DNA of 62,846 bases, filler included, from Collodictyon triciliatum (Eukaryota), in assembly GCA_043381765.1 (NCBI GenBank). It is 6 parts of 6 records of this genome, joined end to end, with 100 filler letters (N's around TTAATTAATTAA, not from the genome) between each part and the next. Parts side by side here need not be neighbours in the genome. Positions count along the whole stretch, not along the records: positions 36,065 to 47,978 come from JBHJMP010002280.1; 5 more parts are not named here. One strand, given 5' to 3'. The notes beneath the pieces are model-generated. The model saw only the letters and a list, made by a program, of their open reading frames with translations. It was not told where the DNA came from and searched no databases. Shown here one piece after another: positions 11,924 to 59,967 of the stretch (its first letter is position 1; each line of letters begins with the position of its first letter). Made by a program: the position numbers and the translations under genes.

Positions 11924-12023
11924 NNNNNNNNNNNNNNNNNNNNNNNNNNNNNNNNNNNNNNNNNNNNTTAATTAATTAANNNNNNNNNNNNNNNNNNNNN
12001 NNNNNNNNNNNNNNNNNNNNNNN
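11924..12023. other. Artificial contig spacer N44-TTAATTAATTAA-N44
   Basis: 100-bp spacer with stop codons in all six frames. Identical spacers lie at 23951-24050, 35965-36064, 47979-48078 and 59968-60067. Confidence 0.97.
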
Positions 12024-13966: not shown

Positions 13967-14021
<55 letters not shown>

Positions 14022-19800: not shown

Positions 19801-19851
19801 AAAAAAAAAACACATAGCCGATCGAGTTAAGAACACGCCAGCACAGCAAGG

Positions 19852-23950: not shown

Positions 23951-24919
23951 NNNNNNNNNNNNNNNNNNNNNNNNNNNNNNNNNNNNNNNNNNNNTTAATT
24001 AATTAANNNNNNNNNNNNNNNNNNNNNNNNNNNNNNNNNNNNNNNNNNNNTTTGTTTTTTTGTTTTTTTGTTTTTTTGTTTTTTTGTTTTTTTTGTTTTT
24101 TGTTTCTTGTTTCTTGTTTCTTGTTTGTCATCTGAAAAGAAACATGCTTATCGATGGATGAAATACAAATCTTTCTAATTGAAAAAATTCAAACAAAGTG
24201 AGAAAAAGAAATAGATGGGGACAAGAAAAAAATGAATAGAGAGGGAGAAAAGAATGAAAGCATGTCAACGACGCGGTTGCATCCGGCCTCTGTTCTTGCC
24301 CAGTTCAAAGCGGTGGATGAAAGGAGTTGTAAGTACAATGTGACGAGTGCGCCAAAGAACTTACCAACTGAAATTCTGCTGCAGTGGGTGGGACATAAGG
24401 CTTCGGCTCCTCCATTCCGATCCAGTGCCGCACTCTGCTTCGCAACTCCTCAAACGACTGATTGGCCACGTAGGGATCTTCTCGTGTCGAGCGGTTTGAT
24501 CGCGTAGAGCTGCGGCGACTGCCACTCGAGACAGAAGGCGACTGCATCTGTGCGTCTGTATTGAAACGTCTTCGTGTTATCAACTGTGTGTAAAAGCGCG
24601 GCTTATCTTTGCCTTTCGTGATCTGCCTTGGTGGCTTTGTGATTGTGGACTATCAGATCACTCGCTGCGCAGGCATCTACGCAACACAAAACGACTTGCA
24701 CCGTTACAAATAGAATGGTATGCTAATATGATATTAGGTATATAAATCTTAAAGTCAATTTCAGAATGTATGTAGACTTAAGAGGTAAAATAAGATTGCA
24801 TGACACTTGTTAATATTGATTCCACATATGTATTATGATATTAATCAATATCCATCTCCTGCCTATTCCGCTTGTGTTTGATCAATCCATCACAAATCAA
24901 AACAGATACAAAACCTGAA

Positions 24920-27845: not shown

Positions 27846-28009
27846 ATAGTGATTCCACAAACCCAAAATATCATTTACACTAAAGAGATTAGGAACCAGT
27901 TCTATGTATAGTTAAACGCGATTGGATATCACAAAATTGCACTACTTATGAAACGGTTCCATCTTCAAAAAAGTATTCACCACGAGATAAGATCTGATTT
28001 TCACTTAAT

Positions 28010-28072
<63 letters not shown>

Positions 28073-29228
28073 TCCTTGTGTTTATATATTCGTACTCTTC
28101 AGCGCATCCAGAACAGCCACGAATTTCACTTTATCCGCCACCTCTCAAAGCGGCTTCGGAGAACCCTGTGGAACGACCACTCCTTACCTAATTCAAAAAA
28201 AAAAGAAATGAAAAAGGGATGTCAATTGAGCTGCAGTCCTTTTTCAGCTGTTATTTTCTCTTCACTGCCACGCTATATCATTTTATCGGTAGTTTGAATG
28301 ATTTCGTCTGGCCAAGGATAAGCAGTTTGTCTAAATACGTCTTTTAATCCGTTTGTGATTCGTAAGTGCCTCCGTTTCTCACATAAAGCAAGTGATTTTG
28401 TGATACTTTTCCCCTCTTATTTTTCCTTCTGTTCCCACCGCGTGATGGTATACATGTATATGTTCATGGGACAGCCTCTTGTAGATTCCTTACACAATCG
28501 AATTGTAACACACATATCATCGAGTGAATATCGGGTCTACAATTTATCATCCCTAATTTTCAATAAAAAAAATAAAATAAAATAAAGTATTATTCACTCA
28601 ACACATGACCCAATGAGTTGCCTGTGATGTGTAATGATTGAGATAAGGAGGACAAAATAAGAAAAAAAATTGGTTTATTTTGTTTTAATAGTTAATAATA
28701 TTGCGACACAGGAAAAGGGAAGAGAGAGAAAGAGAAAGAGAAAGCGAAAGTGAAAGTGAGGGAAAAGTGGACAATATACTCAGATTGCAGTGCTTGAATC
28801 GCTTAGTTCAGAAGTCCAAAAGACTGCTCCCCCATCAGCGCCTTCTTTTTTTCTTTCTTTACAATCTTTATCCAATCTCTCATCCAATAACGACGCGCAG
28901 GGCCGCTGCGTCTACTACTTTTTTTTTTCTCTTCTTCTTCCACCCTGTCCTCTTTTCTTTCTCTTACTGTACCAATCCAGTCATCTGCATCTACAAAACC
29001 AAATCCATCATAGAATCGCCATCCATTCAATAACAAATACAAGGGGAGAAACAAACGAGAAGAAAAAAAAAGGAAAAAAAAAGAAAGAAGATGATTAAAT
29101 CCAACCAACATCCAAGACCACGACTCACAAATTACACAGATGAGGCAAGCCATTCCAACCAAGAGAGAATACCACGAACAACAAAACAAAAGAAACAAAG
29201 GAAGCAGACAAGGAAGCAAGGGACCGAC

Positions 29229-30428
29229 CGCCTTCTGGGTGAGCCGGACAAGGGCAGGAGAGCCGGGGACGTATTCGACAAGGCCGAGGGCGGCAACGAG
29301 GTCGTAGTAGTATCTGTAGTTGTTGATGGGCTGGGAGGCGGTGGAGACGGAGGCGAGGGTGTCGGCCTCGGCCAGGCGGGCCTTGAGGTGAGTGTCGGGG
29401 ACGCCGGCGGGGAACGCCGGATGCATGGCGACGAGCGAGCGGACGAGCGGCTGCGCATACGCGGGGACGTCCCAGGCGCAGAGCGACGTGTCCACGCGGG
29501 GCGCACTTGCGCGGCACGCCTCGGGCAGCGACTGCCGCTCGTCCTCGTACTCGGCCCTGCACGCCACGCAGCACCGCACGCCCTCCACCGCGGCCGTGTG
29601 CTCCACGCAGACGCTTTGGTCGCACCACGGACACGGCCCCACCCGCGCCCGCGTCCGCTTGCGGCAGATGGTGCAGAAGCGCAGCAGCCCCGCGGATCCG
29701 GAGTCGTCTGCCCCGGATTCGTCTGCCCCGGATTGCTTCGCCCCGGATTGCTTCGCCTGCGCCTGCGCCTGCGCCTCGCGGTACTCGTCCTCGCACAGGT
29801 AGCAGGAGTAGAAGCCGTCGTACGTGCCCATGTGCTCCACGCAGACTGCAAAGTCGCAGAAGAAGCAGCGCACAACCGCAGGCCTCCTGCCCAGGCAGAT
29901 CTCGCACCGCTGCGCTGACGGCCGGTGCCGCGCTGGCGCTGCCTGTCCTTTGGCCCGCGCCTCGGCCGCGTACTCTGCCTCGCACTCTGTGCAGGAGTGG
30001 TATTGGTCGTACGAGACCATGTGTCTGCGGCACACGGTGAAGCTGCAGTGGAAGCACTCCTGCCCGTCGTCCAGCAGCTCCTCGCACAACGGGCAGAGCA
30101 CAGCCTCTTCCTCGTCCTCTCTTTCATCCTCGTCCTCGCCCTCGTCCTCGTCCTCGTTCTCTTCTTCGGGGTATTCAAACTCTGCCTCCCGCGTTGTGGC
30201 CTGATCGGGCGCGCGGGCGTCGTGTCCGCGGCTGGTCCGCTTCTGCAGCTCCTCCGCATCCTGCTCCAGACACACGCCGCACAGGCTCTCGCCTTTCGTT
30301 GCAAGCAGGCAGCCGAAGCAGAAGCGGTTGTAGCACGAGGCGCACTTTCTGTGGTTGTTTGTAAACAGCGTTGTTCCGCAGGCGAAGCAGTACACGTCCT
30401 TGGGCGTCTGGCCGGCCTCTTGTGCCAT
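29229..30428 (-). CDS. Protein with four Cys/His-rich zinc-binding modules (B-box/treble-clef-like); first exon
   Basis: C-x2-C-x(9-11)-C-x2-C-x4-C-x2-H/C-x(9-10)-C-x2-C occurs four times. A probable donor lies at 29228, after which the ORF runs into pyrimidine-rich intron-like sequence. Confidence 0.8.
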
Positions 30429-31446
30429 CCCGCTTGTCCCTTCCCTTGTCCCTCGTCTTTTTTTTTTTTTTTTCGATTAGTGTTGATCTATTTCTTTGAT
30501 TCTGTTACTGCTTCTTTTCTTTTCTTCTCTTCTTTGTGAAGGCTCTTCTCGCCTGTCTCGGAATCGAGTCCAGCGCGTCGAGATGAATCAGATGCTGGTG
30601 GATGATGGAAGGAAAAATACAAGACCGTCGATCTAAGTGTCCAGATTTGGAATATAGATTGTTCAATGAAACGAACCGGATACAGAGATACCAGCAAGCG
30701 CACGTGTAAGTTTTGACAACCTGCTTTGTCGCTGGCGTCCAAGAAGAAAAAAAGAAACATCCACTTATCTTCCATCGTACAAACGATGCATTTTTTTTTT
30801 TCATCAGGAGTTCAAAGTAACAATAAAATTTTAATAAATTAATCAAAATCTTTTGTTCTTTTTGTTTCAAGTATCATCCGGCAAAGTGGAATGTCTTTTG
30901 CTAATGCTTCAGTATTCGTNNNNNNNNNNNNNNNNNNNNNNNNNNNNNNNNNNNNNNNNNNNNNNNNNNNNNNNNNNNNNNNNNNNNNNNNNNNNNNNNN
31001 NNNNNNNNNNNNNNNNNNNNNNNNNNNNNNNNNNNNNNNNNNNNNNNNNNNNNNNNNNNNNNNNNNNNNNNNNNNNNNNNNNNNNNNNNNNNNNNNNNNN
31101 NNNNNNNNNNNNNNNNNNNNNNNNNNNNNNNNNNNNNNNNNNNNNNNNNNNNNNNNNNNNNNNNNNNNNNNNNNNNNNNNNNNNNNNNNNNNNNNNNNNN
31201 NNNNNNNNNNNNNNNNNNNNNNNNNNNNNNNNNNNNNNNNNNNNNNNNNNNNNNNNNNNNNNNNNNNNNNNNNNNNNNNNNNNNNNNNNNNNNNNNNNNN
31301 NNNNNNNNNNNNNNNNNNNNNNNNNNNNNNNNNNNNNNNNNNNNNNNNNNNNNNNNNNNNNNNNNNNNNNNNNNNNNNNNNNNNNNNNNNNNNNNNNNNN
31401 NNNNNNNNATAGTATGGTGCTTGGGTGGCTACTAGTTTTACATATT

Positions 31447-35910: not shown

Positions 35911-36414
35911 CGTGAATCTGGTCATCGTTTAGATGTGAGTCAAGGGTGTAATCGTTTAAGACTCNNNNNNNNNNNNNNNNNNNNNNNNNNNNNNNNNNNN
36001 NNNNNNNNTTAATTAATTAANNNNNNNNNNNNNNNNNNNNNNNNNNNNNNNNNNNNNNNNNNNNGAATGATAATACAGTCTTACATGAAAACAGTCTAGT
36101 CTTCGTACCTTGATATTGAATGACTAGTATGCTTTACTCTGGAATTCTTATCATTTTTTAAGGTGATGATTTTTTGTTCGCAGCATAATGTCATAATAAA
36201 GACACCAAAGTGAAATTCCAAAGATTCAAATGAACTTCCAGGTCGTTAAAAAGTAAAAACCTATTGTTAATTCTGCCTGCTGTGTCAAAAACCCTCTCTA
36301 GTGATGATATACCTTCGCACTCTTTCTTTTCAAATATTTTATCTGCCCCCTCTTTCTGTTCTCTATCAAGATACTTGGCATAGCCACCGTTACTGAAGCT
36401 GGACAGTTTGTCGC

Positions 36415-37147: not shown

Positions 37148-40100
37148 TTACTCAGCTGCTCCTGGTCTCGCTCCCTTATGCGAATCAGAGCTCGTGATGG
37201 ACTCCAGTATACTGTTGCGGAGATTTACAGACTCTAACGTTTGAAAGTCCTCAGCCCCCAAAACAGATTGATAGATTAAAAGGGCCTCTTCTGCATAATG
37301 CAACCCAGTATCATACCTTTTCAAGAAATAATTAAACAAGGGTTATTTTCGAGGAAGAAAAGGCGATGTGCTGCTAATATATTATGAATTTAGCAAAGAA
37401 ATCGACATACTCTTCCATTTGGAATAATTGAATGGCAGCGTGCGTGAACGACTCTGCGAGAAGAAGTGATTTGTCCCCAAAAAGGCGAGAAAGGCTTGTC
37501 AGGTGCTTATCGTAGTAGAAACTAGCTTCTTGAACACTTTGGGTGTGTAGATCAATTAGTGAGCTTATGAAAGAAAAGAAACTGGCTTTTATTCAAGTGA
37601 GTTCATTCAAGACTGATTTTTGAATAACAATAAAGGTTGTACTTGAATTTTATCAAGTTATCTCCGGCTGTTTTCCAAAATTCGATGGTTTTTTCATGGT
37701 CATCGCCAAGCGATTTAACAAACTCTTCAGAGGATGCTCGAAAATAGTCTTTCGATTTTTCGAATCTTGGAAATATTATAAGAACTGGGGTTTAAAACTG
37801 TCAAGTGACAAATACAAACTTGAGATGATTAAATATACAAAAGATTACGCATTTGCACCAGCACAGGCAACAGCAAGGTCACATAACAACAGAGCCATGC
37901 CTTCATGATTTTCTGGACGCTCTTCTTGCAAAACACTTACTTGTTCGTCAAAGTATTTTTGTGAAAAAAACCCTCTGTTACAAATTAAAAAAGGAGGTTA
38001 ATTCGGAGAATTGTCAAAGTCCTTTTTTTTAAAAATAAACAGTGACACAGAGTTCCAATAGACCTCTTTAAAAATCAACATTAACTAAATAATAATGAAG
38101 TTAGTAGCTGGCTCACTCATTGTGCTGAAGAAATTTCTCTCCAATATGACGGAATATCATAGAATCGGCCGGATTTGCTGAAAACTGACGATGAACTCCC
38201 ACGAATTTTTCAAAATAAAAATCTGCCTTGGCAAACCTGATTGCAAACAAAAAAAATTCATTGGGCCAGATTATTTTTGTTGCCTTATCGCATATAGCCA
38301 TGATTTGCAAAAAGAGTTTTATGAACTCTGCACTAAATTGTGTTTACCATCCATGTTGAAGATGCATAACTGCAAGTTCCTCGTAGATAAATACAAGAGC
38401 TTCCGGATTATTCGAGTTTTGGCGGCAAAATAAATCAACAAACTCGGTGAAATAAACCTCTGAAACGTCGTACCTTGAACAGATACATAGTAAAATTTAG
38501 TGCAAAAGTAGCTAATGTACCAATCTATGGGCAACATATTTAAATAATGACAAACTTTTTAACTTTCAAGTATTCCATAGCCAGGGATTTACAAAGTTCA
38601 AGATATTCAGGTTGGCTCTTCCCAAGACATTGACCAAGATTTTTTAATGCTTGTTTGTGGTATATGTCTGACTTGTCATAGCTTAAAGATGTTGAAATGA
38701 AAAATTTAAGCAGATTTCGTTATTACCTGATATATATATATATAATGCATACATTAATGGATTATTTATCAAGCAGAAACTTACATTCCTCTTGAAAGGT
38801 AATCATCTCCGATAGACTTACTGAATACAGCTACATCTGCTAAATTCTCAGACAAATGAATAGTCATAATCCAAAGGCCTTGTCTATGATAATCATCTGC
38901 TTTATCGTACCTAGCAAAATCGCAGATATCATTAATGTAAAACGTTTAAGTTTTAAACATTTGAATCTTACCATGATTTTTGGACGTATGATGACCCGAT
39001 ATCCTTATGCAAATTAGCAATACGAGAATAGTCATTGCCACATGACTTTTTGAAAATATCGATACATTTTCCGTAATAATCTTCGGCAATATCATATCTA
39101 ATTAGGGAAATGGTATTTGTTGAGCCTTCCAATGTAAAGAAAGCATTTAAAAATTGAAATACCTTCTAGAATCCAAACAAGAATCTCCCATTTTCTTGTA
39201 AATAGTCGATACGTCCATTTTTGATGCCTTGTTTGATTTTTCCATAATATTTACATATTCTTCAAAATATTTGTTTGCTTCGTCAATCCTAAACGTGTTC
39301 ACGTTAGCCGTATAAATTTTCATTTTCCCACTAGGTAGCAAAGATAACCTTGAGAAGGATAGCTGAATGGTTTAATATAATATCATAAATAAGGGTAAAT
39401 ACCATCCTCCATCCAGGTACAAATCTTTTAAAGTCCAAATTATTGATGGTAAGTCAATATTTGAGTTTTCTGAGCGTATTTTAGCCTTCAGAATTTCGAG
39501 ATATTTAGAGTGCATCTTTTGAGCAGCATCAAAACTAGTTCATCAAAGTAAGATTGTGTTTAACGCAATAATAAACATTTCGCCAAACAGGTTTCCATAA
39601 TTGTGTTTAGAATGTTATAAATGTAGTACGATAAATAAACATAGCAATTATTGTGGGAGTATGCACTTTCTAGCAGTCAAAAACAAGCTTCCAACATGGT
39701 ATATCTTATCAAGCACGTATGAATCTGTATGACCACGACGGCTTACTTCGCACTCAATCAAGTTGGTAAAATAGTTGTAAGCTTTTTGATACCTATTTTG
39801 GAAAAATCTTTATATGAAAAGCACCTAAAAAATATCATCTATGTCGTGATTAATAGGAAAAAAAAAGAAAAGAAAAACTATTATGTTGTATTGCTGGGGT
39901 ACTTTTTTTCCGAGCAGTATCTATTCGCTAAATCCTCAATCTCTTTGGTAATTTTTTCAACATTGGCAGTTGAAGCGCGAAGAGCTTTGATATACTTTAA
40001 ATGGTACTCGTCCGCCAGGTCAAACCTTATCATATAATAATGACTTATCCGTCCCAATGTGGTTGTCAAGTGAATAGAAATAAATATTACCAATCAATTT

Positions 40101-43100
40101 CAAAATAGACGTCACCGATTTCCTTATACAAATCCATCAATCCAGAAGATGATGGAGATGATGAAAGGCAATCCACCGCATTCTTGAAGGATTCTCCAGC
40201 TTTTCCAAATCTTATGAAAAATGAATATAAATTTTTTTCTTGGTACATCAGAATTGAACTGTCAAGAAATGATAATCATATTTTGATGAAAAGTCTTTAT
40301 TTTTAATTCAACATACTCTCTTTCTGACAAGTGGCGAACGCCTATTCTTTTGAAAATAATATGCAATTTCGGGTTTGTAGAGTCATATAGTTTTTGAGAA
40401 AATTTTATGCATTTTTCATACCTAAATCACACAAATGAATGATCAGTTTCAAAATGGTCAGAAAAATCGTCATTTGAGTTTATTTCCAACAATGTGACAA
40501 TCTTACTCTCTCTTTTCAAAGTACCCATCTATAATAGGTTGGATGATTGGTGTTGGGTCACGTTTGTGTGAACTTGAAGAAGCCGCCACAACATCGATAT
40601 ATTTTGTGTAAAATTCATCTGCAAGCTCAAATCTAAAATTTGTTCGTTTATATTTTGAATTTATCCTTTTTTTGAATAAACTGGGATCAAATAATTCACA
40701 AAACTCACCTCGATTGAGAGAAGTATATATCTCCAGCTGATTTGAATAATTTAGCTATTTCTATATGGAATTCTCCATATGCAAGTTTGTAAAAATGAAG
40801 GCATTTGTCGAAACTATAAAAAAAAGAATGAATAAATTCATGTACCAAGTATTTAATTAGCTTTAACGCAGTGACAAAGGTGGTTATCAAGTATTGCATC
40901 ATTTTGAACGAAGCCAAATATATTTAAAAATATTTAAAAAAATACTTTTGGCGAGATAAAAACAAAGTTCCAATTTCCCGGCATGATTTAATGAATACTG
41001 GGTTCTGAATGCCATATTCTCTTGAAAGTATATTACAATATTCTGTCAAATAGTCACTGGCTACATCCACGCTAGTAAAGATGTGAAGTAATTGTAGGAT
41101 TGTGAATATATGACCTAAAAAATTTTCGAAGCTGTCCCTGCTTTTAATAATAAATTATGATAAAACATTCCACCAAAAAAAATACTTGTTCTGCTGCAGA
41201 TATTTTTGTCCTTCTTTCCAGAGCAATTTAAGCGTATTTTCAATATCTTCATTCGCGGAGATTAAGTAAAAACGAACACCAGGCTGAAACCTTATTTCAT
41301 TTAGAATAAAAGCAATTCAAACATGTTATTGTTTACAATATACTTAAAATTACAAAATCATAGATGATGAAGGTTTTATACTTGTAAAAAAAAAAAAAAG
41401 GATATTACTGTTTTTGTTCGAAAAACATGTCCCCTATTTCCTTGGCTAAATTAGCTGTTTCGACCACCCTGTCGGTTGATTTTTTCGCATATTTTATAGT
41501 CATCTGAAAAACCTCGTCAGCTTCATGGTATCTAGTGGAATATCAGCAAAGGCGTAAGCAATTAATTAGACAAATGTAAAACGAAGTGAAATATCAGTAT
41601 ATTCAGGTACTTTTTACTGGTCATCAAATTTTGGGCAGTTTCTTTGCTCATCTGAATGAACTTGGGATTTTCATCCCCTAGTTTTTCCCTAGCCTCTTCC
41701 AACAATCTGAATGGAGAAAACTCGATCTCTCTGTTAATTTAGGCTGATCAGCAAGTGTATTTATCGATTTACAATCTTACGAGTAATTAATATTAACAAT
41801 TCATCTATACATGTCCGGGATAAATAGTAAGATGTTATCATTTGAATATTCTATTTCATGTTCAAACATTCGAGAGATATTGCGCACCTTTCACGTTCAT
41901 CACAAGAAGCATCCATTATTTGAAAATCACTAGGTAAATGTATTAAGTATATGTGCTATTTATAGGGACCTTAATTCCTCAAAATATTGGATGATAGTTG
42001 ACTTACTTGCTTTCATTGAAAATTGAATACAGTTGGTGATGGTTGACTAGGCTCCTCATGATTATTGAGAAATCTGCTTCTTCATGTTGAATACCTTTGA
42101 TTTTTTCTTTGCAGTCTTCAACTTTCCTGAAGCTTGGTTTGGTACGTACATTTTTAGATACATTTGAATAAAAAATAACAAAGCAAACAAAATACACGTG
42201 TTGCTGAATATCTTAAAAAAATGTGGACGTTACCATCTTATGGACATAAAATGGAACATGGATTCGATCCATAACGCTGACAATATGCTTCTTGGATCAA
42301 CCAGATGTATTCTTATATAGTGCTCTGCCTTTTCATAATATGACCAAGCCTTATCGACACTTTATTGGGTAGTGTAAAATTTATCAAAATTTTGGATAGG
42401 ATAAGATTACGTATGTGCTAGATAAAGTTCTATTAAACAATAATTATGTAAGACATGTTGTAAAACCTCATGACTGAAGTATGAAGGCGGCCAGCTAATT
42501 TTAGCATATTGTAATACTGCTGATTAAATTCTTTGGTCAAAGGTAGATTACTTTTCTCAAGTCCACTTTCAATCTCTTGAAAAGCCTCTGAAATCCTTGT
42601 TTTTTTTGTTTTCGTTTGTTTGTTTGTTTGTTTGTTTGAAAAAGATATTTTTTTGGTACTTAATGTTTTATAAATAATTTCATGAACGGTTTTATGAAAA
42701 TAATAATGTCTTGTGATATTCAAATTATTTTCATAATATGTATGTTCTTGTCTATTGCTCCAAAAACCTGTCCTCCTTCATGTAATATTCTGCTAGCAAG
42801 CAATGCAAAGAGCATACATATATTTGAGTATCGGTGGTAGATTTCTTTAATCTTCTAAGTGCCTGAGACAGATAGCTTCGTGCAGAATCAAATCTAATAA
42901 AATCAAGAAAAACGTAAACATTCATTTATTTTATATTTTAATCTGTATGTGATAAAGTTTTGATGAATAAATCAAATCAAACCCATCTACATACGACGCA
43001 ACTTCAGCGATTTCTTTATAGAAATTGTATATTTCTCTAGGATTTAGAGATGCAGTTGGCTCTAGGGCCAATATAAGTTTGTAAATCTCCAGCGAAGATG

Positions 43101-46100
43101 AGTAGCTGGAGAGTCAAGATTTTTAATTAAACCACATATAAAAGCTAGAATATTTTACTTCAATAGATGTATTGATATATCACGTCACCTCCTGATATTT
43201 GATAAGGCTATGGCGTATTGTCGAAGGTGTAAGATATCAGAGTTTCCAAAATGATGGTTAATATCGAACCAAAGTTTGAAAAACTCAGTGGCCTTGTAAA
43301 ATCTATCACAAGATTTATATCAAGACTCAAACATCGTAGATATTCCGTAATGGTATTTTTTTTTATTAAATATAACAAAACAAATTACCTGTTTCTCGAA
43401 AAAAGAATAAGGGCAATCTGCATATGTACATCACAAATGGGAAAATTAGATAAACTAATTTTTTTGTGGATCTCTAATGCGTGTCTCAGACATTCTTCTC
43501 CGTTCTCAGATTCACTGTTACATGAACAATTGTTTAATACGATGTTTTAAATTCATCTCTTTTTTTTTTTTTTACTATAATTCAGAGGCAACCATTTGTG
43601 CTATCACAAAAAGAGGGGAAACGATGGTCAAAAGATTCCTTAATTTAGCTTTTTCTTCTTTTTTTATGAAGATTATATGTAAATCATACGGATTTGAAGC
43701 CAAGAGGTAACTTCCAATTTTCAATAAAATTTTAGAAAATTCAACACTATTTTCTCCATACGTTTTCCGCACAATATCTTTCGCTTGTTCGGTTAATTGA
43801 TGTCCTCGATGCATGTTTCTGTTTTACAAGAATAATATGTAATTGATTCAGATATCTAGGAGTTTGTTAAAAAAAATCGTTAATTAGGGAATGAAGTCGT
43901 CAACAGACTTTGATTTTCCGACATGAAAATCAGCAACTTTAATCAACATTTGTGCATATTTCAAACTCGCTCGACCGAAGGCTTGCTCATATTTTTCGAG
44001 TGCTTCATCATACCTATTTTGTCATAATATTGATGATAGAAAATACTCTAAGAAAATTATTGGTTGCTTAAGCAAGTGAATGAGATAGGCTAACGTACAT
44101 ATTGACAGAAAAGTAGGCATCTCCTATGTCCTTGTTCATCGACGATATGTCTGAATCTTGAATATAAATACAACGGTCGAGGATTTCGTTCGCATCTTCG
44201 TAATATATTTTTGCCGAATCAAACCTGAATTCAAAATTGATGAGAATTGACATTCGAATCAAAGTCTCATAGGTAAAAACAAGAACTCTTTATGTAGGAG
44301 CAGAAAGTCTCCAATTCTCTTGCTCAAATAAGCTGCCTCCGTGTGTCGGTTGGTGAGAATCCTTTCGCATAGTGATGTCGCTCTTTGAATTCTGGAGTTT
44401 TAGTAGTATTTAATTCACAAGTATCAGAATTTTGAATATTTAATACCATAACTACATCAAAATAAAAGTATTAAAAAAATTCACACAAAAATTTTACGTA
44501 ATATTTTTATACATTTTCAAAGATGAATATTCACGTACTCATGGTTGTGAACAAAATGCATGAATATGACTCTGTATATGTTGATCATTTTTTGCATTAT
44601 TGTGTCATCTGCAATATCCACTGTCTCGAAAAACTCAATCAAAATGAGGTCTTGGGATTCAGAATTTCTACATTGTAATTTAACTCATAATATTATGTTC
44701 TCTTATTAAGTCCACTATTTGAATCTTATATCAAATATTTTATGATGGAATTAGAAGGAAACCCTATGTTTCGGAGACCATCCAAAAATTCAAAAAGATG
44801 TTCTAGTGTGCTCTCCGCTCGTTTGCTATTCGCTCCAAAAACATCGACGCGAATAAAATAGGACTTTCTCATAAAAGTAAAATATTCTTTGTATCTAAGG
44901 CATTCGTTATTTTAATTTATTACATAGTAACAAGCCTGGGAACTTTTTCGGCTGATACAGTGCAACAAAATCAAACCTTCCGTTTTTTAAATGAACCGTC
45001 GAAATTGCAGCATAGGCATCGCTAGTGATAGGGTGCTGCTTGCCAAAAGACACGCGGGATATTTCTATGGCTCGTTCAAGCTCTTGAATAGAAGCGTCCA
45101 TTCTAGAAAAAAAATTATGTTAAAATAGGAAACATATAGAAGGATATAAAAACGCACACCTCCCAAGTTCAGCTTTTGAGAGCCCTATTTCTATGTGAGA
45201 TTCTACTAATTTGGGAGATTGCTGTCCCCATAGCTGTGATCCAATGTGAATAGCTTGTGCTGCTGCATCTATAGCTTCATCAAACCTTCAAGTGCAAGTT
45301 AGTTCTAATTTTAACAAAGACAACACAAAAATTGTGCTGTCGTGGCAATAATAATGAATATGATGTGCCACTTAAACAAAGGAATAGAAAAAGAAAAAAG
45401 AAATACTGTTTGTTTCTCCGATGTAGTTTGCTAATTTCCTGATAGCCAGTAACGGCATCAGGGTGAATGTTTCCATGCAATCCTTCAAGATGTTCCAAGT
45501 AAAGCTTGTGATACACCAAGGCCGAAGCGTATCTGAAATTGTATTTAAAAATTATTAAAGGGTATTTTTATTGAAGCACAAAGTGTACACTTTGGTCCTA
45601 TAATGAAAGCATTATAAGTACTCTTCTATTCGAAGGCATGATTTCCCCAGTTGTTGATATAGTAGAATTTGGCTCTCTAATTGAGTTAATCATAAGGTTT
45701 AATCTATGTTTCAACGATTATTTGGTGGATACAGACGGAAAATACTAGCCTTTTTTTTCAGATACTTGTACTTTTTTCAGCAACATTTGTCTGCATTCAA
45801 GTGCATACCCAGCCTCGATAAGCAAATCAAAAACCAAATTTGCCTTAATACTATTGGACTATATCGGTAGTTGAAAAGAAAAGGATTTAAATATGCGAAA
45901 AATTAATCAAGAAGGCCCCTTTGTTGAAAGAATACTAAGCCTTACCATCAATAAATTGTTGTAAAAAACCGTCGGTTTATAGTCTTCGCCATCTAGCCAA
46001 ATCAAGTAAGACAAAAACTCGTACCGATATCGACTATTTGACAAGGATTCGATAACCTATTTCCAAAGAATCCATCGGAAAAATGGTAACATTATGATTT

Positions 46101-47830
46101 AATATAAAGAACGTGTTCTAATATAAAATTACGTACAAATTAGAATGTAAAGTACTAACATCTTCATTCTTTAGAAATTCTGCAAGCTCACGCTGCATAC
46201 AGGATTCTTTCAATGAAAAGCATATCTCAGATACATCCTCTGGTCTCTGTGGCAAAGTTGTTTGGTGATTCTTCAAAAGAAACGATGCATATGTCTTCAT
46301 GAAGCCCTCAAAGCTCTTCCTGTCACCACAATATTTTCGTTTGACTGAGGTTTGCAGAATTTTGTGACTGTAAAATAACCTAAAGAATAGAATTGTTCAT
46401 GGTTGATGAACTTGAGTGAGTTTGAATGAATTCAGATTTTAAATATATGTATATATGAATCAGTCAGGTATTATATTGTGGGAAAAAGCACTAGAGTATT
46501 TTGGCTACCTTCCATTGCAAATGTATAACGTATCTGTCATTATAAATAGTAGTGATTTCCTGTCGTTTAAAATCATGCATTCGAAATTAGTGTCAAATGT
46601 CAAATATATGAAAACAAGGTAGCAACATTATGTGTATCAAAATGTCAGTAGTAGTTTACCAGTCTTCATAATTGAACTCCTTTCCAAGTGTTTGTTCCAA
46701 ATAGTCGTCCATTTCGTTCTCTGTAAGTCCAGTGCGAGACAAAGCAAGAATTGATGATGCATATCGCACCAACTTGAATCCTTGAATTAAAAGAAGGGGT
46801 TACATGCAATATTTACAGCGAAAGGGGATAATAGTTCAAGGTAAAATATAAAAATGTAATCATGTTCTCCAACCATATTGTTCTTCCCATTTGTTGAGTA
46901 TATTCTGAAACAGTAATTCGGCATTTGGATGATTCAGATATCTCTGAATCTCATCTGAGAGACCCTCATACAGTCCAAATTGTCTTAGTTCATCTAGCAG
47001 TATCCTCAAGTACAATGGATTTCCTAGTAGGCAAGGAATATTGAACATGAATTCAGAATCAAAATATGGTTAATTAAAAATTTGTACATACTCGATGCTG
47101 GAGACTCTGAAATTTTTTGAACTTGATTATCAGATAACTTTTTATCATATCGAGATAGATAAGAGCTTATGATTGATTGTATTTCATTTGTATCCAACAA
47201 ATCAACTCTAATCGTATCCCATCCCAATTCCTCAATAATCTGAGATATTTATGTAATTAGCAGAGTTAAATTCAATAAATTGAGAATAAATCTACAGAAT
47301 AGGATATGAAATCCACATTTCCTTTGCGATAGAGCATCCACCTGCATGTTTTTTTGAGTATAAGACACCGAAATAATGACAGATAAGGATGACCCCGATA
47401 TTGTCGGTACCCAACCAAGTTGGTCGGGATGTGGATGAGAATATGAGGGAAGTAGTTCATCTACACCGTCGATTATAAAGAACTTTCTCCTGCAAAAGGA
47501 AATCCATATTATGTGACTCAAATTTAATATTTATTGCAGTCCAGAATACAAAAATCTCATTGCAATCTGGTATTGATGTTGTTAGGGTACCTTTTCGTTT
47601 TCGAAATCTTGGATATAATATATTGGAGTTGATCATCGGCCAGTGTTGATAATTCTGATTTTATAATAAATAGAATAAAAAATGAATACATTTACACTTA
47701 AAAACGAAATTATTACGATGGTATGAATTATGCAACATAATTAAATAATATGTCTCAAGAAGCTGATCCCAACCAGAGACAGAGCTATGCATGACTAAGA
47801 AAGATGCTGCCCTCTCGACGAAGCTTTTTT
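37148..47830 (-). CDS. NACHT/STAND NTPase-TPR protein (nephrocystin-3-like architecture); about 45 exons, 5' end lost at the contig break
   Basis: Walker B FFIIDGVDEL..LGWVP..VIISV; YLSRYDKKLSDNQVQKI..NPLYLRILLDELRQFG..LFQNILNKWEEQYG; LALSRTGLTENE. These are followed by about 30 TPR-like exons, e.g. FGKQHPITSDAYAAI. Confidence 0.9.
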
Positions 47831-47858: not shown

Positions 47859-47978
<120 letters not shown>

Positions 47979-48277
47979 NNNNNNNNNNNNNNNNNNNNNN
48001 NNNNNNNNNNNNNNNNNNNNNNTTAATTAATTAANNNNNNNNNNNNNNNNNNNNNNNNNNNNNNNNNNNNNNNNNNNNAATAAAAAAACATGTTCCCTTT
48101 TTTTTCGCCTTTTTTTCTTTCATTTTTTTTTTTTTTTTTTTTTACTGTTGCTTTCTGTTCGACCCGGGCAACGAGCAGACGAACGTTTCCTTCTCTATCA
48201 CGGGCCTGGACGAGTGGCTATCATATCTTTCCCGTCCCGCTGTTTGTTTCTATCTTTCCTTGTCGGCAACTCAGGCT

Positions 48278-51760: not shown

Positions 51761-52298
51761 TTTATTAGTTGTATCTCATTCAGCTTGAATATCTGAAATC
51801 CTGTTGCCCTTCTTTATCGAAAATGCTTGTGAGGCTCCCGGCTCGACCTTCACCTTCTCTGTTTCCAGCCCACATCCCCGCAATCAAGATTGCAAGAAAG
51901 ACTACCCGTGCATGGCTTCGCCAACCGAATATTAATTTCCAATAATAGATAAAATATCACAAAACGGCAAAATACAAATTTGGAAAAACAAGATTTTTTC
52001 TTTTATCAGAAAAAATTAACCGCCACAACTCTGCCAAGCGCCAGCGGTTACATTGTTGCTGGTGATAAGGACACAAGAAACCGCAAAGCATGTGGCTATC
52101 TTCTCGACGCCTTTGGTTGCGTACTCTGCGTGCGAATGTAGAGGCCGCCCCCGTACTTTCACACCCGCTCAACATCCAAAACATCTTGAAATCATGCTGA
52201 TTCCTACTCCCAAATGTCTTGCAGACAAAGCCTGGGACGATCTTCGGTCCGTCGGATCCTATTGAGCCTCGTAACCGTTGAGAGAAAGGTAGAGTGTG

Positions 52299-54770
52299 AT
52301 GAAAGTAGCTGTGCTTACACATAATCCTCTTGAGTCAGTCGGTGAGAGAGCATGTATTAGTAAAGAGCCATCAGGAATCGACATTTCTGGTGCTATAGGC
52401 AGCCCAGGGACTGCTAGACAAATTGCCTTTACATGGAGCGAAAATGTAGAGGCCTTTCCTTCTTCAAGTTCAACACATGGCAAGGCTGATGTCATGGCCA
52501 ATCGTTCTGTATCACACCACTTCATTGAGAAAAAAACCCTGTCATTTCTGGGGTATAAAAGAACTGAAAGCCCAACAGACCCAAACGTAAATGAGCAGTC
52601 TCAACCACATTTTTCCGAAATTCAAGATTCTCAAGAGCCCAGACACATGATAGCACCTGTTCCCTGGAACCATGAATGCCGATTGGATGATGTTCTCATC
52701 GCTCCTGTAGAACAAGTTATTCTAGTGAATGCATCTCACTCTTTTGTGCATAGTTTAGGGGGCCAAGTCGCATCTCGGTTCCTTGTCCGATTCACATCCA
52801 AAATGCAACCTGTTTTCATCAGTATTTGGTTTTTGGATTGCATCTTTTGTCTTGTGAGTTTTTTAGGAAGTTCATACATCCCACCATGGGTGTGTTCAGT
52901 TGCTGGCTGTATTACATCCTTTTACTTGGCAATTTTGATGATAATGTTACAGAAAAATGTGGTTAGACGCATCATCATGAATTTCGAAACATCATACCTT
53001 TTAATTATTGCCCTTCTCAATAGCTATTTCCTAGCAGATATTCTTTGTTGGAACCCTGCTTATATGTCTTCCGTTGTGGCTTGCTATTTTTCATTTACTT
53101 TCGGTATATTCATGGACGGTAATTCAATATCTTTTAAGAAATTCGATCAAGGCTTTAATGATGCTCTTTTGAAGAATTTTTCATTAGAAGAGCAGGATCA
53201 GCACAGTTTGAATACTCCTTTTATTCTCAATCACCCGACCCTAAATACTGCCATATCCGGATGGGTTAACGCAGTAGTTGACAAGCAGAATGGAAGAATT
53301 CGCCATCTTATAACTCAGTTGTCTGTTATGAATTTGTTCCATCCGTGGTACCAATACGTCATCACAGCTTTATGTGGGATAACCAACCAGTTGGGAATAT
53401 ACATCATGATAAGATATGACCTCATGCCCCAAAAGTGTATTCGCACAGTAAAAATTATGTGGATGGAATGGGATTCAGATGAAATCCTTTTACTTTTATG
53501 TGCCCATCTTGTGCTATTTTTAACTAAGAGAATAGTTATTATGGCTTTACGTCCCGGACGGGTGGCAGCTATAAAAAGGAATATGATGATGATACCTTTG
53601 GTCCCATATTGGCACCACATCGATTTGTGTATTCAAAGCTTAGAAAATCGAGGGAAAGGACCAAGATTAGAGGTATCTAATCAAAGCATTAGCCGAAACT
53701 TTGAAAAGCTTGCAGCCTACTTTAAGGAACATCGATTATTGGCTCTTTTTTGTCCGAGTTCCATATATTCATTTCCTTACCAGCCCAAGCAGACTCACCA
53801 ATTTTCAGAAAAGCTTGAAAAAATTCTTAGTTATGTACATTCCTTTTGGTTTTACCTTTGGATGTTCTCCATCCCAGTTAGTGTCATATCCTTGTCATGT
53901 CTGGATAAAAATAATTTTCCTTTCTTTGGCTTCGTTTGCAGTGCAGGATTTATGTATGGAACCAAATATTTCAGGGGTTATTGTTACAAAATTTTATTTG
54001 AATCGGTATACTCGTTTGAAAATGTTTATGTCTTTCTATGCTTCAATTTGGCTTGTTTTTCATTGGCAGACTACTTGACGTGGAGTAGTCCCAAAACATA
54101 TATATCCGTACCTCTAATATATCTTGTTTATTTTCACAGCCTGTTCCATGGCGCTAAAAAAAGAGATAATGAGACATTTAATAACAATCTACGGAGGCTG
54201 TTTCAAGACAATTTTGATGAAATCAACAACACACCATTTACTCGTCACCTTTTACAGTCTATCCGCTGCTATGGTGCATATGTAAACTCCAAAAGTCAAA
54301 GGTTACTTCCGGGGGCTATTCAATATGATCATAATTTATACCCGACCATAAACCTCGATGAGCTTGAAAGTCATGACTGGTCGGTCGAGCATATCATTGC
54401 TCCTTTTCCAAGAATGACTAGAAAGGAGTGGTGGGTATATACGAAACTATTCGGGACTTACCATTTATTCATGAACTGGATATCAGTTATTCTCACAATT
54501 GCCATATACATCACAATTGAGACGGAAAATATCTCTACTGGCGAAGAGCGTATAATCAGCCTAGGGATTTTAAATTTATCCAATAGGGCTGTGTTGAATT
54601 CCTCACTGTCCAATCTCTTTCTCTTTTGCTTGAAACGTTCATTGGCATCCACGTTTAACCCCTTTGTTGTGTCCTTATTCGAAGTGGATCATTTGCGTAT
54701 CCCTATTGTCATAAGTTTACTGAAATACATGAAGTATTTGCAGGAATCCAGCAAGAGCAATATTACTTGA
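52299..54770 (+). CDS. Single-exon duplicated-domain membrane protein (paralog 3)
   Basis: 823-aa ORF. Halves are FETSYL..MDGNSISF..MIPLV and FENVYV..RIPIV. Confidence 0.9.
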   Translation: MKVAVLTHNPLESVGERACISKEPSGIDISGAIGSPGTARQIAFTWSENVEAFPSSSSTHGKADVMANRSVSHHFIEKKTLSFLGYKRTESPTDPNVNEQSQPHFSEIQDSQEPRHMIAPVPWNHECRLDDVLIAPVEQVILVNASHSFVHSLGGQVASRFLVRFTSKMQPVFISIWFLDCIFCLVSFLGSSYIPPWVCSVAGCITSFYLAILMIMLQKNVVRRIIMNFETSYLLIIALLNSYFLADILCWNPAYMSSVVACYFSFTFGIFMDGNSISFKKFDQGFNDALLKNFSLEEQDQHSLNTPFILNHPTLNTAISGWVNAVVDKQNGRIRHLITQLSVMNLFHPWYQYVITALCGITNQLGIYIMIRYDLMPQKCIRTVKIMWMEWDSDEILLLLCAHLVLFLTKRIVIMALRPGRVAAIKRNMMMIPLVPYWHHIDLCIQSLENRGKGPRLEVSNQSISRNFEKLAAYFKEHRLLALFCPSSIYSFPYQPKQTHQFSEKLEKILSYVHSFWFYLWMFSIPVSVISLSCLDKNNFPFFGFVCSAGFMYGTKYFRGYCYKILFESVYSFENVYVFLCFNLACFSLADYLTWSSPKTYISVPLIYLVYFHSLFHGAKKRDNETFNNNLRRLFQDNFDEINNTPFTRHLLQSIRCYGAYVNSKSQRLLPGAIQYDHNLYPTINLDELESHDWSVEHIIAPFPRMTRKEWWVYTKLFGTYHLFMNWISVILTIAIYITIETENISTGEERIISLGILNLSNRAVLNSSLSNLFLFCLKRSLASTFNPFVVSLFEVDHLRIPIVISLLKYMKYLQESSKSNIT

Positions 54771-56179: not shown

Positions 56180-58001
56180 ATGGCCTCTGTCAAAATAAAC
56201 ATCCGCACCGCTGGTTACGATCCGAATCAGCAGTTGCTCGTTGAGATACCAGGGGCAGAAACAGTGGGGGAGCTGAAGAATAGGGTATTATATAGTTCAT
56301 GATCCAAGCATTCACAACCTTAAAACATGAAAGAAATGACATAAACTCATAAACGAGTTTGAACAGGCCCAATGCACAAATTGTGGTATTATCACCTATA
56401 TATTATAGAGGTGATAATACCACACAAATATTATTTTTAATTTATTTATTTATTTTTTAAAAAAAAAGAAAACATAACATGAGATCATTTCCTTAACATT
56501 TTTTTTTCGATCTACGCTAATTAAAAAAAAAAAAAAAAGAAGCAAAGATGGCGTAAATGTTCCTTTGGAGCGATAAAATAAGGATTTAGAGGAAATGTCG
56601 GTCTATGACACCCCAATGCGCTTTAACTCCCTTCTTCCCATAAAAACCGCAGATTACGCAATCACATCCATCCCATCCTATCCCATCACAACAGCGTCTC
56701 ATCTATGCTGGTGCTATTCTTCGAGATGAACAAAAAATAGCGGACGTTTTTTATCAGGTTTGGGGGTTTCACCTATGATCGTATGCTATTGTAGTCCGGA
56801 GTTCTTCCTTGAGTAAATATATCATTTAGGGCTGTCATGGAATATGTTTCACATAAAGAACGAGAATTGATCCGTTATCTTTCTATTGCTACAGCTATAT
56901 TTTTATTTTTGAAAACAGCGAGTAAAAAAGAATTTCGTTTTACTACCACAGAATCAACCTGATTTCAGTTATGTGGCCCACCTAGTCATATCTAACTCAA
57001 CGTCAGATCCACAGACCTCCTCTAGTAGGGCAACTCAAAACCAAACAGAAACAAACCAAAGCTTCCCTAATCAACTCCAATATCCAGGCCCGTACTACAA
57101 TCATCTATATGCAAATTACCCTCCGTTTGCTTTCAATTCTCCGCTTGCATTTACGTAAATATTACATCATTATGTTGCAGTAAATCAACCATTTTTGAAA
57201 CAAATTTCGTCTACTTTATTTCTCAGTTTAAGCAGACCTTTTTTTCTTTTAATTTTCTTGTTAAAAAATCGACAATCTAGAAAACAATTTACCATAGCCC
57301 AAATGCAAATATCAGCGCTTTATTTTGCATCATGTATGGTCTAAGGTGTTCTCAACTATTAGGGACTCATACTATGAAGGGCAAGGGGTCTCACATAACC
57401 CTTACCATCAACACGGAGGCCACTACTTTCAACCATATAATGGATTCACTCAAACACACCCACAAATATCACCACAGCAACAACAACAACAACAACAACA
57501 ACCACAAATACATCAACCACAAATACCTCAACAAGTACAACAACCCCAAATACCTCAACAAAATCCCCAGGTTTTTGTCCGACATTTTCAGTTCGATTTA
57601 AGCGTCGCTTTTCGTTATCTAATGTTTGCCCTAATTCTCTATTCTGCTATACCTGGAGGAGAGTCTATGGTCAGTACGTCTCAAATATACCTACTGGCCT
57701 TGCTTTGGTTATTGTGAGTCCCCCATTAAATTCTCTTTATATCACCTTGTATTTCAATCCTTACTGCTAATGTCTTAACGGCCACTCTCATTACCGTCAC
57801 TCATATAATTATTTTGAACTCTAATTGAGAAAGGCTTAATCTTGTAACTAATGCATGATTCAATATGAAACAATCTTACTTTTTTTTCCCCTCCGCTCGT
57901 TTCAAAGACGAAATAATCTAACATAGTGACATATATCTCTACTTAGATTTCAAATGGGTTTTTTTCAATTCAACGTCCAAGTTAGAGGATTCAGACAATA
58001 G
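56180..58001 (+). CDS. HERP/HERPUD-like protein (N-terminal ubiquitin-like domain, C-terminal TM segments); 3' end uncertain
   Basis: TVGELKNR|ITQSHPSHPIPSQQRLIYAGAILRDEQKIADVF..VAHLV, then a Q/Y-rich linker and hydrophobic FRYLMFALILY..FQMGFF. Confidence 0.8.
56382..56424. mobile_element. 43-bp palindromic MITE-like insert in an intron
   Basis: Perfect 16-bp inverted repeat TGTGGTATTATCACCT / AGGTGATAATACCACA, flanked by the direct repeat CAAAT. Confidence 0.65.
57880..57907 (-). mobile_element. Degenerate ultra-short retroposed tail in an intron
   Basis: T8-CCCCTCCGCTCGTTTCAAAG between ATGAAACAATCTTAC and ACGAAATAATCTAAC. Confidence 0.65.
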
Positions 58002-58571
58002 ATAAGAATAAATGGCACATTTCAATGACTGATCAGGATGCATGGATGCCTTCTTTCTGTAAGATAGTGAATGAGTCCTCATAGCAGATGTTCGTTTTGC
58101 CAGGGCGATTGCAAAGTGCTAAAACCATTCAAACGCCGGCGCAAACGACCAGTCAGTCGCAAGACTCAACCAATTATGGAATATATATATTTATACGTAA
58201 ATCGATTATTTTATTGTTGATATATCAATAAATATATGAAATATCGTATATATTCTACCAATTTATATCATTTAGAAGCTTTATTTTGTGGCTTGGTAAT
58301 CCACTTGACGGGGACAGATTTCTTTATGTCTCTCCACATTAGGTAATTGTGGCTATTCAAAACCGCCACTAAGACGTCGATTTTCTGCTATGAAACAAGA
58401 CTTCCTTTCTATTAGTAGGACCGAATAAATGTGCCTACCAAGATGTCCAAATGAAGAATATTTCACGAGCTGACTTTGGACTATTCAATTGTGCGCGTTC
58501 AAACCGGAACAGCCACAGCGCCACCAACTTCTCTCTAGCGAATGAAAGTCTGCTTCTATTTTCGCTTTGCC

Positions 58572-59835
58572 ATGGCCGAATCGCCAAAAAAAAAACAGCA
58601 TATTCCAAATAAAGAGATTGGTTTTTACAATACTGGAAAGCACAATTCAATTCACCTTACAATTTATCCTCTCCTTTTTTTTTTTCAGCGGCCATCGCGG
58701 GCTGCTAGGGATGCCAATCAGCTAGACCAGAGAAAGCCGCTCATTCCCAGGTTCGTGATCGATAGAAGCGAGGAAGGAGGAGGCCGCAGAGCAAAGAGTC
58801 ATAGACGTTCAAACCCAGCACAATATCTGAACCCGCACAATATTGAACAGAGTACAGTGGGCAAAGCAAAAGGATTGAAGACTTGGAGAGGGTTAAGGCA
58901 CCGCCCAACAACCGGAGAGACTATTTCTTGTTTTCTCTGTGGGCATTCCTATTCACACGACAACTACCAACCAACCAACAAACAAACAAAAGAAAATACT
59001 AACATGAATGCCAACAGGAGCTCCAGGTCGATCCCCCGACCCGCCTTTGTCAGCTCCCTTCAGCACTCCCCCCCAAGAAACAAATGCAGACTGTGACCAG
59101 CACCGAATCCGCCCCTGCCAAAACCACAGCCACACAGCCTACCACAAACACAGCCACAGCCACAACCACAACCACAACCACAAAGGCCGTTGAGTGGGAC
59201 GGGACAGAGACCTTCAATCCCTCCGGAGTCGACTGGTTTGCAGAGCCCGGGTGGATGGACCTGGACAGGATGAAAGCGCGGGCATGGGCACTGTGGCGCC
59301 ACTACCTGGCCGGGATTGTGGCGTGGCTGTGGTCACTGGTTGCCCCACCAGAGCCAACTACAACCACAACCTCAGCCACAACCTCAGCCACAACCTCAGC
59401 CACCGCCGCAACCACAGCGCGGGCCTTGACGCTGTCCATCCCCTTCGTTCCACCCTCGGCCACCTCCGTGGCGCAGACGGGCCTCGACTGCAGAGACGCG
59501 GAGACCCATGTGCGACACATCCACGACCCAGAAGGTAGCTGCCTTTCCTTTTTTCTTTTTCTTTTTCTTTTTCTCTTTCTTTTTCCTTTTTCCTTTCCTT
59601 TTCTTCTTTCCTTTTCTTCTTTCCCTTTCCGCACCACATCACGCCACGCCAGAGCTCCCTGTGACCACAGCACCCTCCCCCGCAGGACCGATCCGGATCC
59701 ACCGCTTCCACATTGAGGGCGGTCCGCACCACGCAGCACCCCTCGCGGCATACCTGACGTACTCCGGCCCCAAAGGCTGTGATGTGGCCCTCCACTGGCG
59801 CAGACGAGACCTGATTCGGACGCAGAGCCTTCCGG
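58572..59835 (+). CDS. Hypothetical protein, 5' exons; truncated at the contig end
   Basis: Open exons bounded by GT-AG with pyrimidine tracts. Thr-rich repeats and a Trp-rich segment are present. Confidence 0.5.
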
Positions 59836-59860
59836 GTATGCCCATTCTTGTTTTTGGCGC

Positions 59861-59967
<107 letters not shown>

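Follow-up and report, generated by a model that had tools for sequence, protein, structure and literature searches.

A predicted NACHT-type gene of Collodictyon triciliatum with one TPR period per phase-2 exon and a degenerate nucleotide-binding module

A stretch of 62,846 nucleotides from the Collodictyon triciliatum assembly GCA_043381765.1 (the whole of it referred to below as the window) carries on its minus strand, at 37148..47825, a predicted gene in which ten upstream exons for a NACHT-type STAND module are followed by 38 exons for an array of tetratricopeptide repeats (TPR). The exon chain and homology both bear out the original prediction for this DNA to the extent that a STAND module (NACHT-type) is joined to TPRs in a gene whose symmetric phase-2 exons each hold one repeat period. 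We consider it moderately probable that this is a real gene, that its TPR array arose by old serial duplication of an exon-plus-intron unit and that its product, which would be without P-loop and DUF4062, is a scaffold or a sensor-only partner. The gene model is wholly computational, its exons being chained symmetric open AG..GT segments.

The model comprises 48 exons and 47 introns, with 5865 nt of modelled exon inside a gene span of 10678 nt. The TPR array runs from 45532 to 37148 in 38 GT-AG exons and closes with a TAA stop at 37148-37150; when spliced it gives 1534 codons with no internal stop. All 37 array introns are in phase 2, as is the intron that enters the array from the upstream module, while the ten junctions of the upstream module as built are of mixed phase. 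Lengths are a multiple of three in 36 of the 38 TPR exons, plus one doubtful exon of 42 nt. The commonest length is 126 nt (17 exons), followed by 105 nt (five), 123 nt (four), 129 and 120 nt (three each) and 132 nt (two), with single exons of 114, 111, 42 (the doubtful one) and 169 nt, the last being the terminal exon. Two details of the model as scored are better read otherwise: it cut 47567-47590 as a 24-nt intron, which is not needed and which adds eight residues if read through, and for exon T37 it used the acceptor 37521, where 37536 fits better (the repeat hidden Markov model, HMM, matches over 37532-37416), adds five residues and raises the number of 126-nt exons to 18. Neither change affects the downstream frames. 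Array introns are 57-175 nt long (mean 102) and those of the whole gene 51-276 nt, apart from a 28-nt segment to which we return below. A (TTTG)9 microsatellite (42601-42638) lies within the 172-nt intron between exons T13 and T14.

The original prediction had counted about 30 exons with phase 2 on both sides, which understated a chain of 38 with introns all in phase 2. The nine exons that it named as exactly 126 nt long are all flanked by an AG acceptor and a GT donor, and each is open solely in the frame from its second base, that is phase 2 on both sides. The repeat border it proposed, ..R|Y/F-D-x-A, stood only in part: the first residue of the exon is Y or F in 26 of the 38 TPR exons, but the residue of the split codon is R at only seven of the 37 array junctions, and this was the weakest element of the prediction.

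On the minus strand and in the phase of the array, the longest chain of symmetric open AG..GT exons (99-135 nt) has 37 members, compared with two to four in the other five strand and phase combinations of the same stretch and a mean of 3.35 (maximum 7) in 100 shuffles. We treat this statistic as supportive only, because control stretches with long open reading frames (ORFs) elsewhere in the window reach chains of up to 18. The contrast in GC content between exons (37.3%) and introns (27.8%) backs the model independently of it, and so does the pattern of variants given below, with synonymous changes in the TPR exons and indels confined to introns.

The peptides encoded by the TPR exons follow the pattern [Y/F]-D-x-A-x-x-Y-[F/Y]-x-x-A-L-x-I ... 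G-x-x-[H]-P ... I-[G/A]-x-x-Y. A search of the PDB with a profile of 37 of them returned only TPR proteins at E<=0.001 (26 distinct sequences), with designed consensus TPRs best (2e-19), then kinesin light chains (4e-11 to 1e-8), and with APBP2 and a bacterial kinesin-light-chain-like protein as further matches, which places the C-terminal repeats in the 42-residue TPR_10/TPR_12 type. Profile positions 1-13 correspond to the second consensus TPR helix, so that every exon combines helix B of one repeat with the following repeat's helix A; the intron falls at the A/B turn, and the 8-residue extension of 42-residue TPRs sits within the exon, between helix B and the next helix A. The 105-nt exons encode a 35-residue repeat without this extension. 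There are about 37 repeats, forming a solenoid of about 1540 residues.

These repeats have diverged very far from one another, with a mean identity of 14% (maximum 32%, 666 pairs) and no trend with distance along the array, and no exon-plus-intron tandem period was found in a nucleotide repeat scan, the sole direct repeat being one of 33 nt at 76%. Growth of the array thus appears to be old, as the original prediction had also supposed, there being no nucleotide similarity left between the units. A single exon-plus-intron unit may have been duplicated in tandem over and over to form the array, a history like that of Ectocarpus NB-ARC-TPR genes and Tetrahymena LRR arrays, each copy inheriting the same intron position at the A/B turn and the same phase, and this would explain why the introns are so uniformly in phase 2. 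Such growth would be ancient, the gene would be a member of a protist expansion of the DUF4062-NACHT-TPR family, and its TPR part would have been kept by selection.

Upstream of the array (exons N1 to N11, Table 1) the label NACHT given in the original prediction fits the Walker B, helical and winged-helix parts, but just a relic of the Walker A loop remains and there is no N-terminal DUF4062. The Walker B motif hhhhD[GA]hDE is present as KFFIIDGVDEL at about 47450-47485, aligned to VLVLDALNQL of the relatives, and the helical and winged-helix region (NPLYLR..LDELRQFG) is colinear with the DUF4062-NACHT-TPR family. Neither the Walker A pattern GxxxxGK[ST] nor SSTFRD-type motifs were found in any frame of the window; in the register of the P-loop, where the family has PLVLTGESGCGKSALL (GESGCGKS), this gene has FLVMHSSVSGWDQLL (HSSVSGWD). 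Positions 1-425 of the family HMM, which cover DUF4062 and the P-loop region, had no match on either strand of 36000-62846, and no DUF4062 was found in the window by the family HMM, by tblastn with bacterial and Diphylleia rotans N-termini or by motif scans. (A DUF4062-like tblastn match at 61927-62049 on the minus strand was put down to chance, the best E being 0.07, the queries being related and not independent and Pfam giving no support.) This copy therefore seems to have lost both the N-terminal DUF4062 of its family and a functional Walker A loop, and with these losses a canonical switch driven by nucleoside triphosphates would be impossible for this protein.

The same features could in principle belong to a complete canonical DUF4062-NACHT-TPR receptor whose 5' exons are hidden by N runs, a microsatellite or misassembly, an account to which we give little credence. 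N runs (47979-48078) and a 119-nt microsatellite do stand where the gene becomes unreadable, and an exon lying upstream could be spliced to the AG acceptor at 47824-47825, but the place of the P-loop is taken by the in-register relic, the two N runs amount to just 88 nt and the 14.7 kb further upstream are without any DUF4062-like or P-loop signal on both strands.

Pfam searches with single exons or ORF pieces gave weak TPR_12 matches only, and family membership rests on homology computed by script between the spliced model and sequences returned from databases. Exon N6 (with NPLYLRILLDELRQFG) retrieved 34 metagenome loci, each with a single long ORF. The six loci scanned with Pfam all had DUF4062, NACHT and TPR_NPHP3, and five had TPR_10/TPR_12; weaker matches were to HTH_NWD1 (three of six), NPHP3_hel (one) and NPHP3_N (one). 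An HMM built from the metagenome ORFs scored 193.8 bits against the spliced model and 183.7 bits against its non-TPR part (model residues 60-420), the best of 100 shuffles scoring 2.7. A homologue search with an 80-aa exon gave no match and one with exon N6 gave a single match, while a HMMER scan of 1.84 billion representatives with N6 returned 242 matches at E<=0.001, with identities of at most 58% and none at E<=1e-10. When the 150 of these 242 matches that were listed were re-ranked by model residues 1-440, the top six were all EukProt transcripts of D. rotans (EP00002: P0135, P0155, P0157, P0159, P0038 and P0066), with 31-33% identity over about 340 residues.

Diphylleia rotans is a freshwater flagellate. 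It expresses at least six distinct DUF4062-NACHT-TPR genes as assembled by Trinity, one of which encodes P0135 (2314 aa), whose repeats, as in the array described here, are degenerate. Among the five proteins scanned with Pfam, four had DUF4062, four NPHP3_N and/or NACHT and four TPR_12, and canonical P-loops are kept (e.g. KSGIGKSS, GEPGVGKT). The model and the five usable D. rotans genes formed a clade with support of 100 both in FastTree (136 rows, at least 200 model positions covered) and in IQ-TREE (41 rows, consisting of the model, 16 near neighbours and 24 random picks, the last with at least 250 positions covered), shorter isoforms of the same Trinity genes being omitted from both trees, and the model was sister to the D. 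rotans genes. Ten further proteins were examined, including eight that stood next nearest to the model in the tree; all were metagenomic, and two were named nephrocystin-3 by their source. The grouping with five paralogous D. rotans genes suggests a lineage-specific family. In the window itself no second paralog of the gene was found, and Rfam gave no match there; in the literature we found nothing in print on the DUF4062-NACHT-TPR family in collodictyonids.

Sequence variants were taken from shallow freshwater-metagenome contigs (two studies, three runs, a fourth run giving no reads) of 151-244 nt, 90-100% likeness and depth 2-7, which are uninformative on exon number. The gene span contained 22 substitutions, 15 of them intronic, five in TPR exons and two in N1/N2. 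All five TPR-exon variants are synonymous and all three indels are intronic. A metagenome-listed joint (41359>42925) was discarded, one of its sides having only 22 letters.

Exon shuffling has its textbook substrate in genes whose symmetric exons each encode one repeat, and the original prediction had gone on to propose a splice- or shuffle-variable NLR-like sensor. We found no support for this proposal: there are no pseudo-exons, no spare units and no nucleotide similarity between units, and the TPR-exon variants are only synonymous. An NLR-like immune receptor with a TPR sensor diversified by exon skipping, duplication, or somatic or germline shuffling would have in its favour that the internal TPR exons are all symmetric and could be dropped or doubled in frame, that the family is expanded in D. 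rotans, that Avs2 of Pseudomonas, with a related DUF4062-STAND-TPR architecture, is described as defending against phage (10.64898/2026.09.04.749371) and that Ectocarpus offers a precedent (PMC3341825). We nevertheless find it improbable. When all six frames of the window were scanned with a repeat HMM, the 37 highest scores went to the 37 exons and the next match scored 8 bits, with no intronic pseudo-exons, opposite-strand TPR units or spare cassettes detected; since these exons had also been used to build the HMM, it can fairly test for extra copies but not for the exons themselves. The lack of nucleotide similarity between the units leaves unequal exchange with nothing to act on, and this copy has neither an effector domain nor a working P-loop. 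Exon skipping was looked for in the transcripts of relatives. Among the D. rotans isoforms compared (three Trinity genes, 11 proteins) no in-frame skip of a repeat was seen, and all four isoform differences in the TPR region fall at ...G-x | [Y/F/N]-x-x-A, where the last residue is R or K in three ORFs and the fourth reads on into unrelated residues, as expected from a retained phase-2 intron starting GTAA or GTATG. The differences are retained introns or truncations at the repeat border, and they suggest that the D. rotans relatives have an intron at the same TPR position. If the array is old, stable and apparently constrained, its architecture alone would record array growth and not ongoing diversification.

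Several points weigh against the reading that we prefer, that of a real gene with an old array and a degenerate NACHT-type module. Everything in the gene model is predicted, including the 42-nt exon, the 28-nt intron and the 5' end. Pfam NACHT models were matched by no single upstream exon, and Pfam TPR_12 was reached singly by only two of the 37 exon peptides. No start codon or exon upstream of N1 was identified, and a TAA just upstream of N1 closes the reading frame, which would suit a pseudogene. The branch of the NACHT region measures 1.5, which is long beside the 0.46-0.79 of the D. rotans genes, both variants in N1/N2 are non-synonymous (47712 in N1 and 47644 in N2/N3), the synonymous-only result for the TPR exons consists of five sites in contigs of depth 2-7 and the D. 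rotans intron positions come from transcripts, not from a genome. A recently disabled pseudogene, in which the 5' part (DUF4062 and P-loop) was lost, a 28-nt insertion broke the frame and the TPR exons have not yet decayed, would fit the in-frame TAA and microsatellite directly upstream of N1, the missing start, the Walker A relic with absent DUF4062, a segment of 28 nt that is far shorter than every other intron of the gene, the non-synonymous changes in N1/N2 and the long branch. We regard it as unlikely, because about 5.9 kb of exon is open across 48 exons in DNA of 33% GC with all GT-AG pairs intact, the GC contrast between exons and introns is preserved, the TPR-exon variants are synonymous throughout with indels confined to introns, and once the 28 nt are removed the frame is restored and a conserved W lies 15 residues from the Walker B aspartate, as it does in the family.

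If the gene is real, as we prefer to read it, its protein would work through its helical, winged-helix and TPR parts, serving either as a scaffold for binding or, alongside intact paralogs, as their sensor-only or regulatory partner. It would then be a natural example of a STAND protein that keeps a huge TPR solenoid while losing its effector and its nucleotide-binding loop, and would bear on the origin of sensor-only or decoy members in NLR-like families. The features of the model are collected in Table 1.

Table 1. Predicted exons of the NACHT-type TPR gene and adjoining features (positions along the window)
Feature	Position	Strand	Remarks
Microsatellite (TTA/AAT)n	47860..47978	.	39.7 copies; directly upstream of first readable exon; then N runs 47979-48022 and 48035-48078
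N1	47706..47825	-	5' side open, in-frame TAA just upstream; Walker A relic FLVMHSSVSGWDQLL; coding doubtful
N2/N3	47518..47654	-	readable as one exon, NYQHWPMINS...EIFVFWTAINIKF
28-nt GT..AG segment	47490..47517	-	very short intron or frame-breaking insertion
N4	47342..47489	-	Walker B KFFIIDGVDEL; LGWVPT...VIISVS
N5	47092..47239	-	NACHT C-terminal part SYLSRYDKKLSDNQVQKI; family HMM 29.5 bits as single ORF piece
N6	46874..47023	-	helical-domain motif NPLYLRILLDELRQFG; family HMM 63.2 bits alone
N7	46660..46780	-	winged-helix part ILALSRTGLTENEMDDYL
N8	46509..46559	-	KSLLFIMTDTLYICNG
N9	46133..46379	-	LFYSHKILQTSVKRKY, helical spacer
N10	45946..46056	-	helical spacer
N11	45809..45858	-	first-TPR helix A ANLVFDLLIEAG; donor GTATGC, phase 2; 276-nt intron to T1
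T1	45407..45532	-	126 nt; chain and repeat HMM
T2	45160..45285	-	126 nt; synonymous variant 45225
T3	44977..45102	-	126 nt; Pfam TPR_12 E 3.6e-5
T4	44763..44894	-	132 nt, degenerate; repeat HMM 12.0 bits
T5	44539..44667	-	129 nt, degenerate; repeat HMM 10.7 bits
T6	44287..44391	-	105 nt, 35-aa form
T7	44099..44224	-	126 nt
T8	43909..44013	-	105 nt
T9	43690..43818	-	129 nt
T10	43389..43514	-	126 nt
T11	43189..43302	-	114 nt
T12	42983..43105	-	123 nt
T13	42768..42893	-	126 nt
T14	42467..42595	-	129 nt
T15	42234..42359	-	126 nt
T16	42007..42132	-	126 nt, degenerate; repeat HMM 13.0 bits
T17	41888..41929	-	uncertain candidate 42-nt symmetric mini-exon; if dropped, T16-T18 intron is 276 nt
T18	41611..41730	-	120 nt
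T19	41409..41531	-	123 nt
T20	41186..41290	-	105 nt; alternative donor 41174 gives 117 nt
T21	40946..41071	-	126 nt
T22	40709..40813	-	105 nt
T23	40507..40632	-	126 nt
T24	40317..40421	-	105 nt
T25	40091..40210	-	120 nt
T26	39903..40025	-	123 nt
T27	39667..39792	-	126 nt
T28	39403..39534	-	132 nt
T29	39163..39288	-	126 nt
T30	38972..39097	-	126 nt; Pfam TPR_12 E 0.0058; three synonymous variants
T31	38785..38910	-	126 nt
T32	38556..38681	-	126 nt
T33	38348..38473	-	126 nt; synonymous variant 38443
T34	38117..38236	-	120 nt
T35	37849..37974	-	126 nt
T36	37643..37765	-	123 nt
T37	37411..37536	-	126 nt with acceptor 37536, better repeat fit (VQEASFYYDKHL); acceptor 37521 gives 111 nt
T38	37148..37316	-	last repeat and tail; TAA stop 37148-37150

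Elsewhere in the window there are three long intron-less ORFs, at 4543-8190 (plus strand, 1215 aa), 16033-18636 (minus strand, 867 aa) and 52293-54770 (plus strand, 825 aa), which are distant paralogs of one another (about 20-27% identity, E down to 3e-13) and look internally duplicated; none matched a Pfam family, and the 867-aa ORF had no relative among 5.8 billion proteins. An ORF at 19831-20811 (plus strand), apparently followed by an intron, matches G-patch weakly (Pfam E 7.8e-4, which does not reach the curated cut-off), and a GC-rich ORF of 557 aa at 28803-30476 (minus strand) has a repeated Cys-rich unit (C..C...H....Y....SC..C..EY) and no Pfam match. Blocks of 47-60% GC (4001-6000, 8001-10000, 14001-16000, 28001-30000 and 58001-60000) stand in a background of 31-40%, many of them full of di- and trinucleotide microsatellites; the NACHT-TPR gene is in an AT-rich part. 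Pairs of 44-N runs 12 bases apart recur about every 12 kb (11924-12023, 23951-24050, 35965-36064, 47979-48078 and 59968-60067), one pair lying just upstream of the readable 5' end of the gene, and there are further runs of 36 N at 25009 and 489 N at 30920-31408. The regular pairs resemble masking and not assembly gaps.

Among known systems, kinesin light chains are the natural structures that the exon profile matches best and share the 42-residue TPR type, but they have about six repeats and no STAND module. The DUF4062(NIR/TIR-like)-NACHT-TPR proteins (NPHP3, DUF4062-bearing Avs2 and metagenomic bacterial proteins) share the colinear order of Walker B, helical part, winged helix and 42-residue TPRs, and these relatives match Pfam DUF4062, NACHT/NPHP3_N, HTH_NWD1, NPHP3_hel, TPR_NPHP3 and TPR_10/12. 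The copy described here differs from them in having neither DUF4062 nor Walker A and in having 47 introns, and its roughly 37 TPRs compare with at most about ten TPR_10 matches in each of the bacterial ORFs scanned. In two recent preprints (10.64898/2026.09.04.749371, 10.64898/2026.05.01.722283) DUF4062 is described as a TIR-like NADase that is the effector of the Pseudomonas anti-phage protein Avs2 and as being present in NPHP3, NWD1/2 and TEP1. The D. rotans proteins, the nearest relatives among the 150 of 242 matches listed, include the likewise very long P0135 and have their break points at the same repeat position, but they keep DUF4062 and a canonical GxxxxGK[ST], and their divergence is too great for them to represent this gene in one and the same species.

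Two published exon arrays come closer in gene structure. In Tetrahymena, arrays of 90-bp leucine-rich repeat (LRR) exons with more than 96-98% phase-2 introns are read by Xiong et al. (2019, PMC6564038) as clonal exon expansion. The likeness extends to symmetric exons, almost exclusive phase-2 introns and a 'junction' residue split between neighbouring exons; the difference is that those are LRRs in thousands of young genes with nucleotide similarity, whereas here there is one old TPR array. The exon-per-repeat precedent that the original prediction cited from the brown alga Ectocarpus is real: in Zambounis et al. (2012, PMC3341825), NB-ARC-TPR loci with 126-nt (42-aa) and 102-nt TPR exons are described and such genes are proposed as a route to variable immune receptors. 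Both systems combine a STAND NTPase and TPRs with exon lengths in multiples of three, so that gain or loss of an exon stays in frame, and Ectocarpus-type sizes account here for 17 exons of 126 nt (18 with acceptor 37536) and five of 105 nt among the 38. That source also reports inactivated TPR exons in introns, exons similar enough for synonymous divergence (dS) to be estimated and shuffling inferred from them; none of these is found here, where repeat identity is 14%. The NTPase is called NB-ARC in the brown alga and is NACHT/NPHP3-like in the freshwater organism studied here.

It is conceivable, though we would put it no higher than a long shot, that the A/B-turn intron is ancient and common to exon-modular STAND-TPR sensors, that it was inherited in collodictyonid-like organisms and is perhaps even homologous to that of the brown-algal 126-nt arrays, and that this copy is a sensor-only partner signalling through intact DUF4062-NACHT-TPR paralogs in the manner of plant sensor/helper NLRs. 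Independently of that, the same architecture occurs here in a nephrocystin-3-like NACHT clade whose closest listed kin are in the little-studied protist D. rotans, and the locus therefore adds another lineage and another STAND clade to the Ectocarpus-like exon arrays, with an array that is older and more stable and an NTPase that is degenerate.

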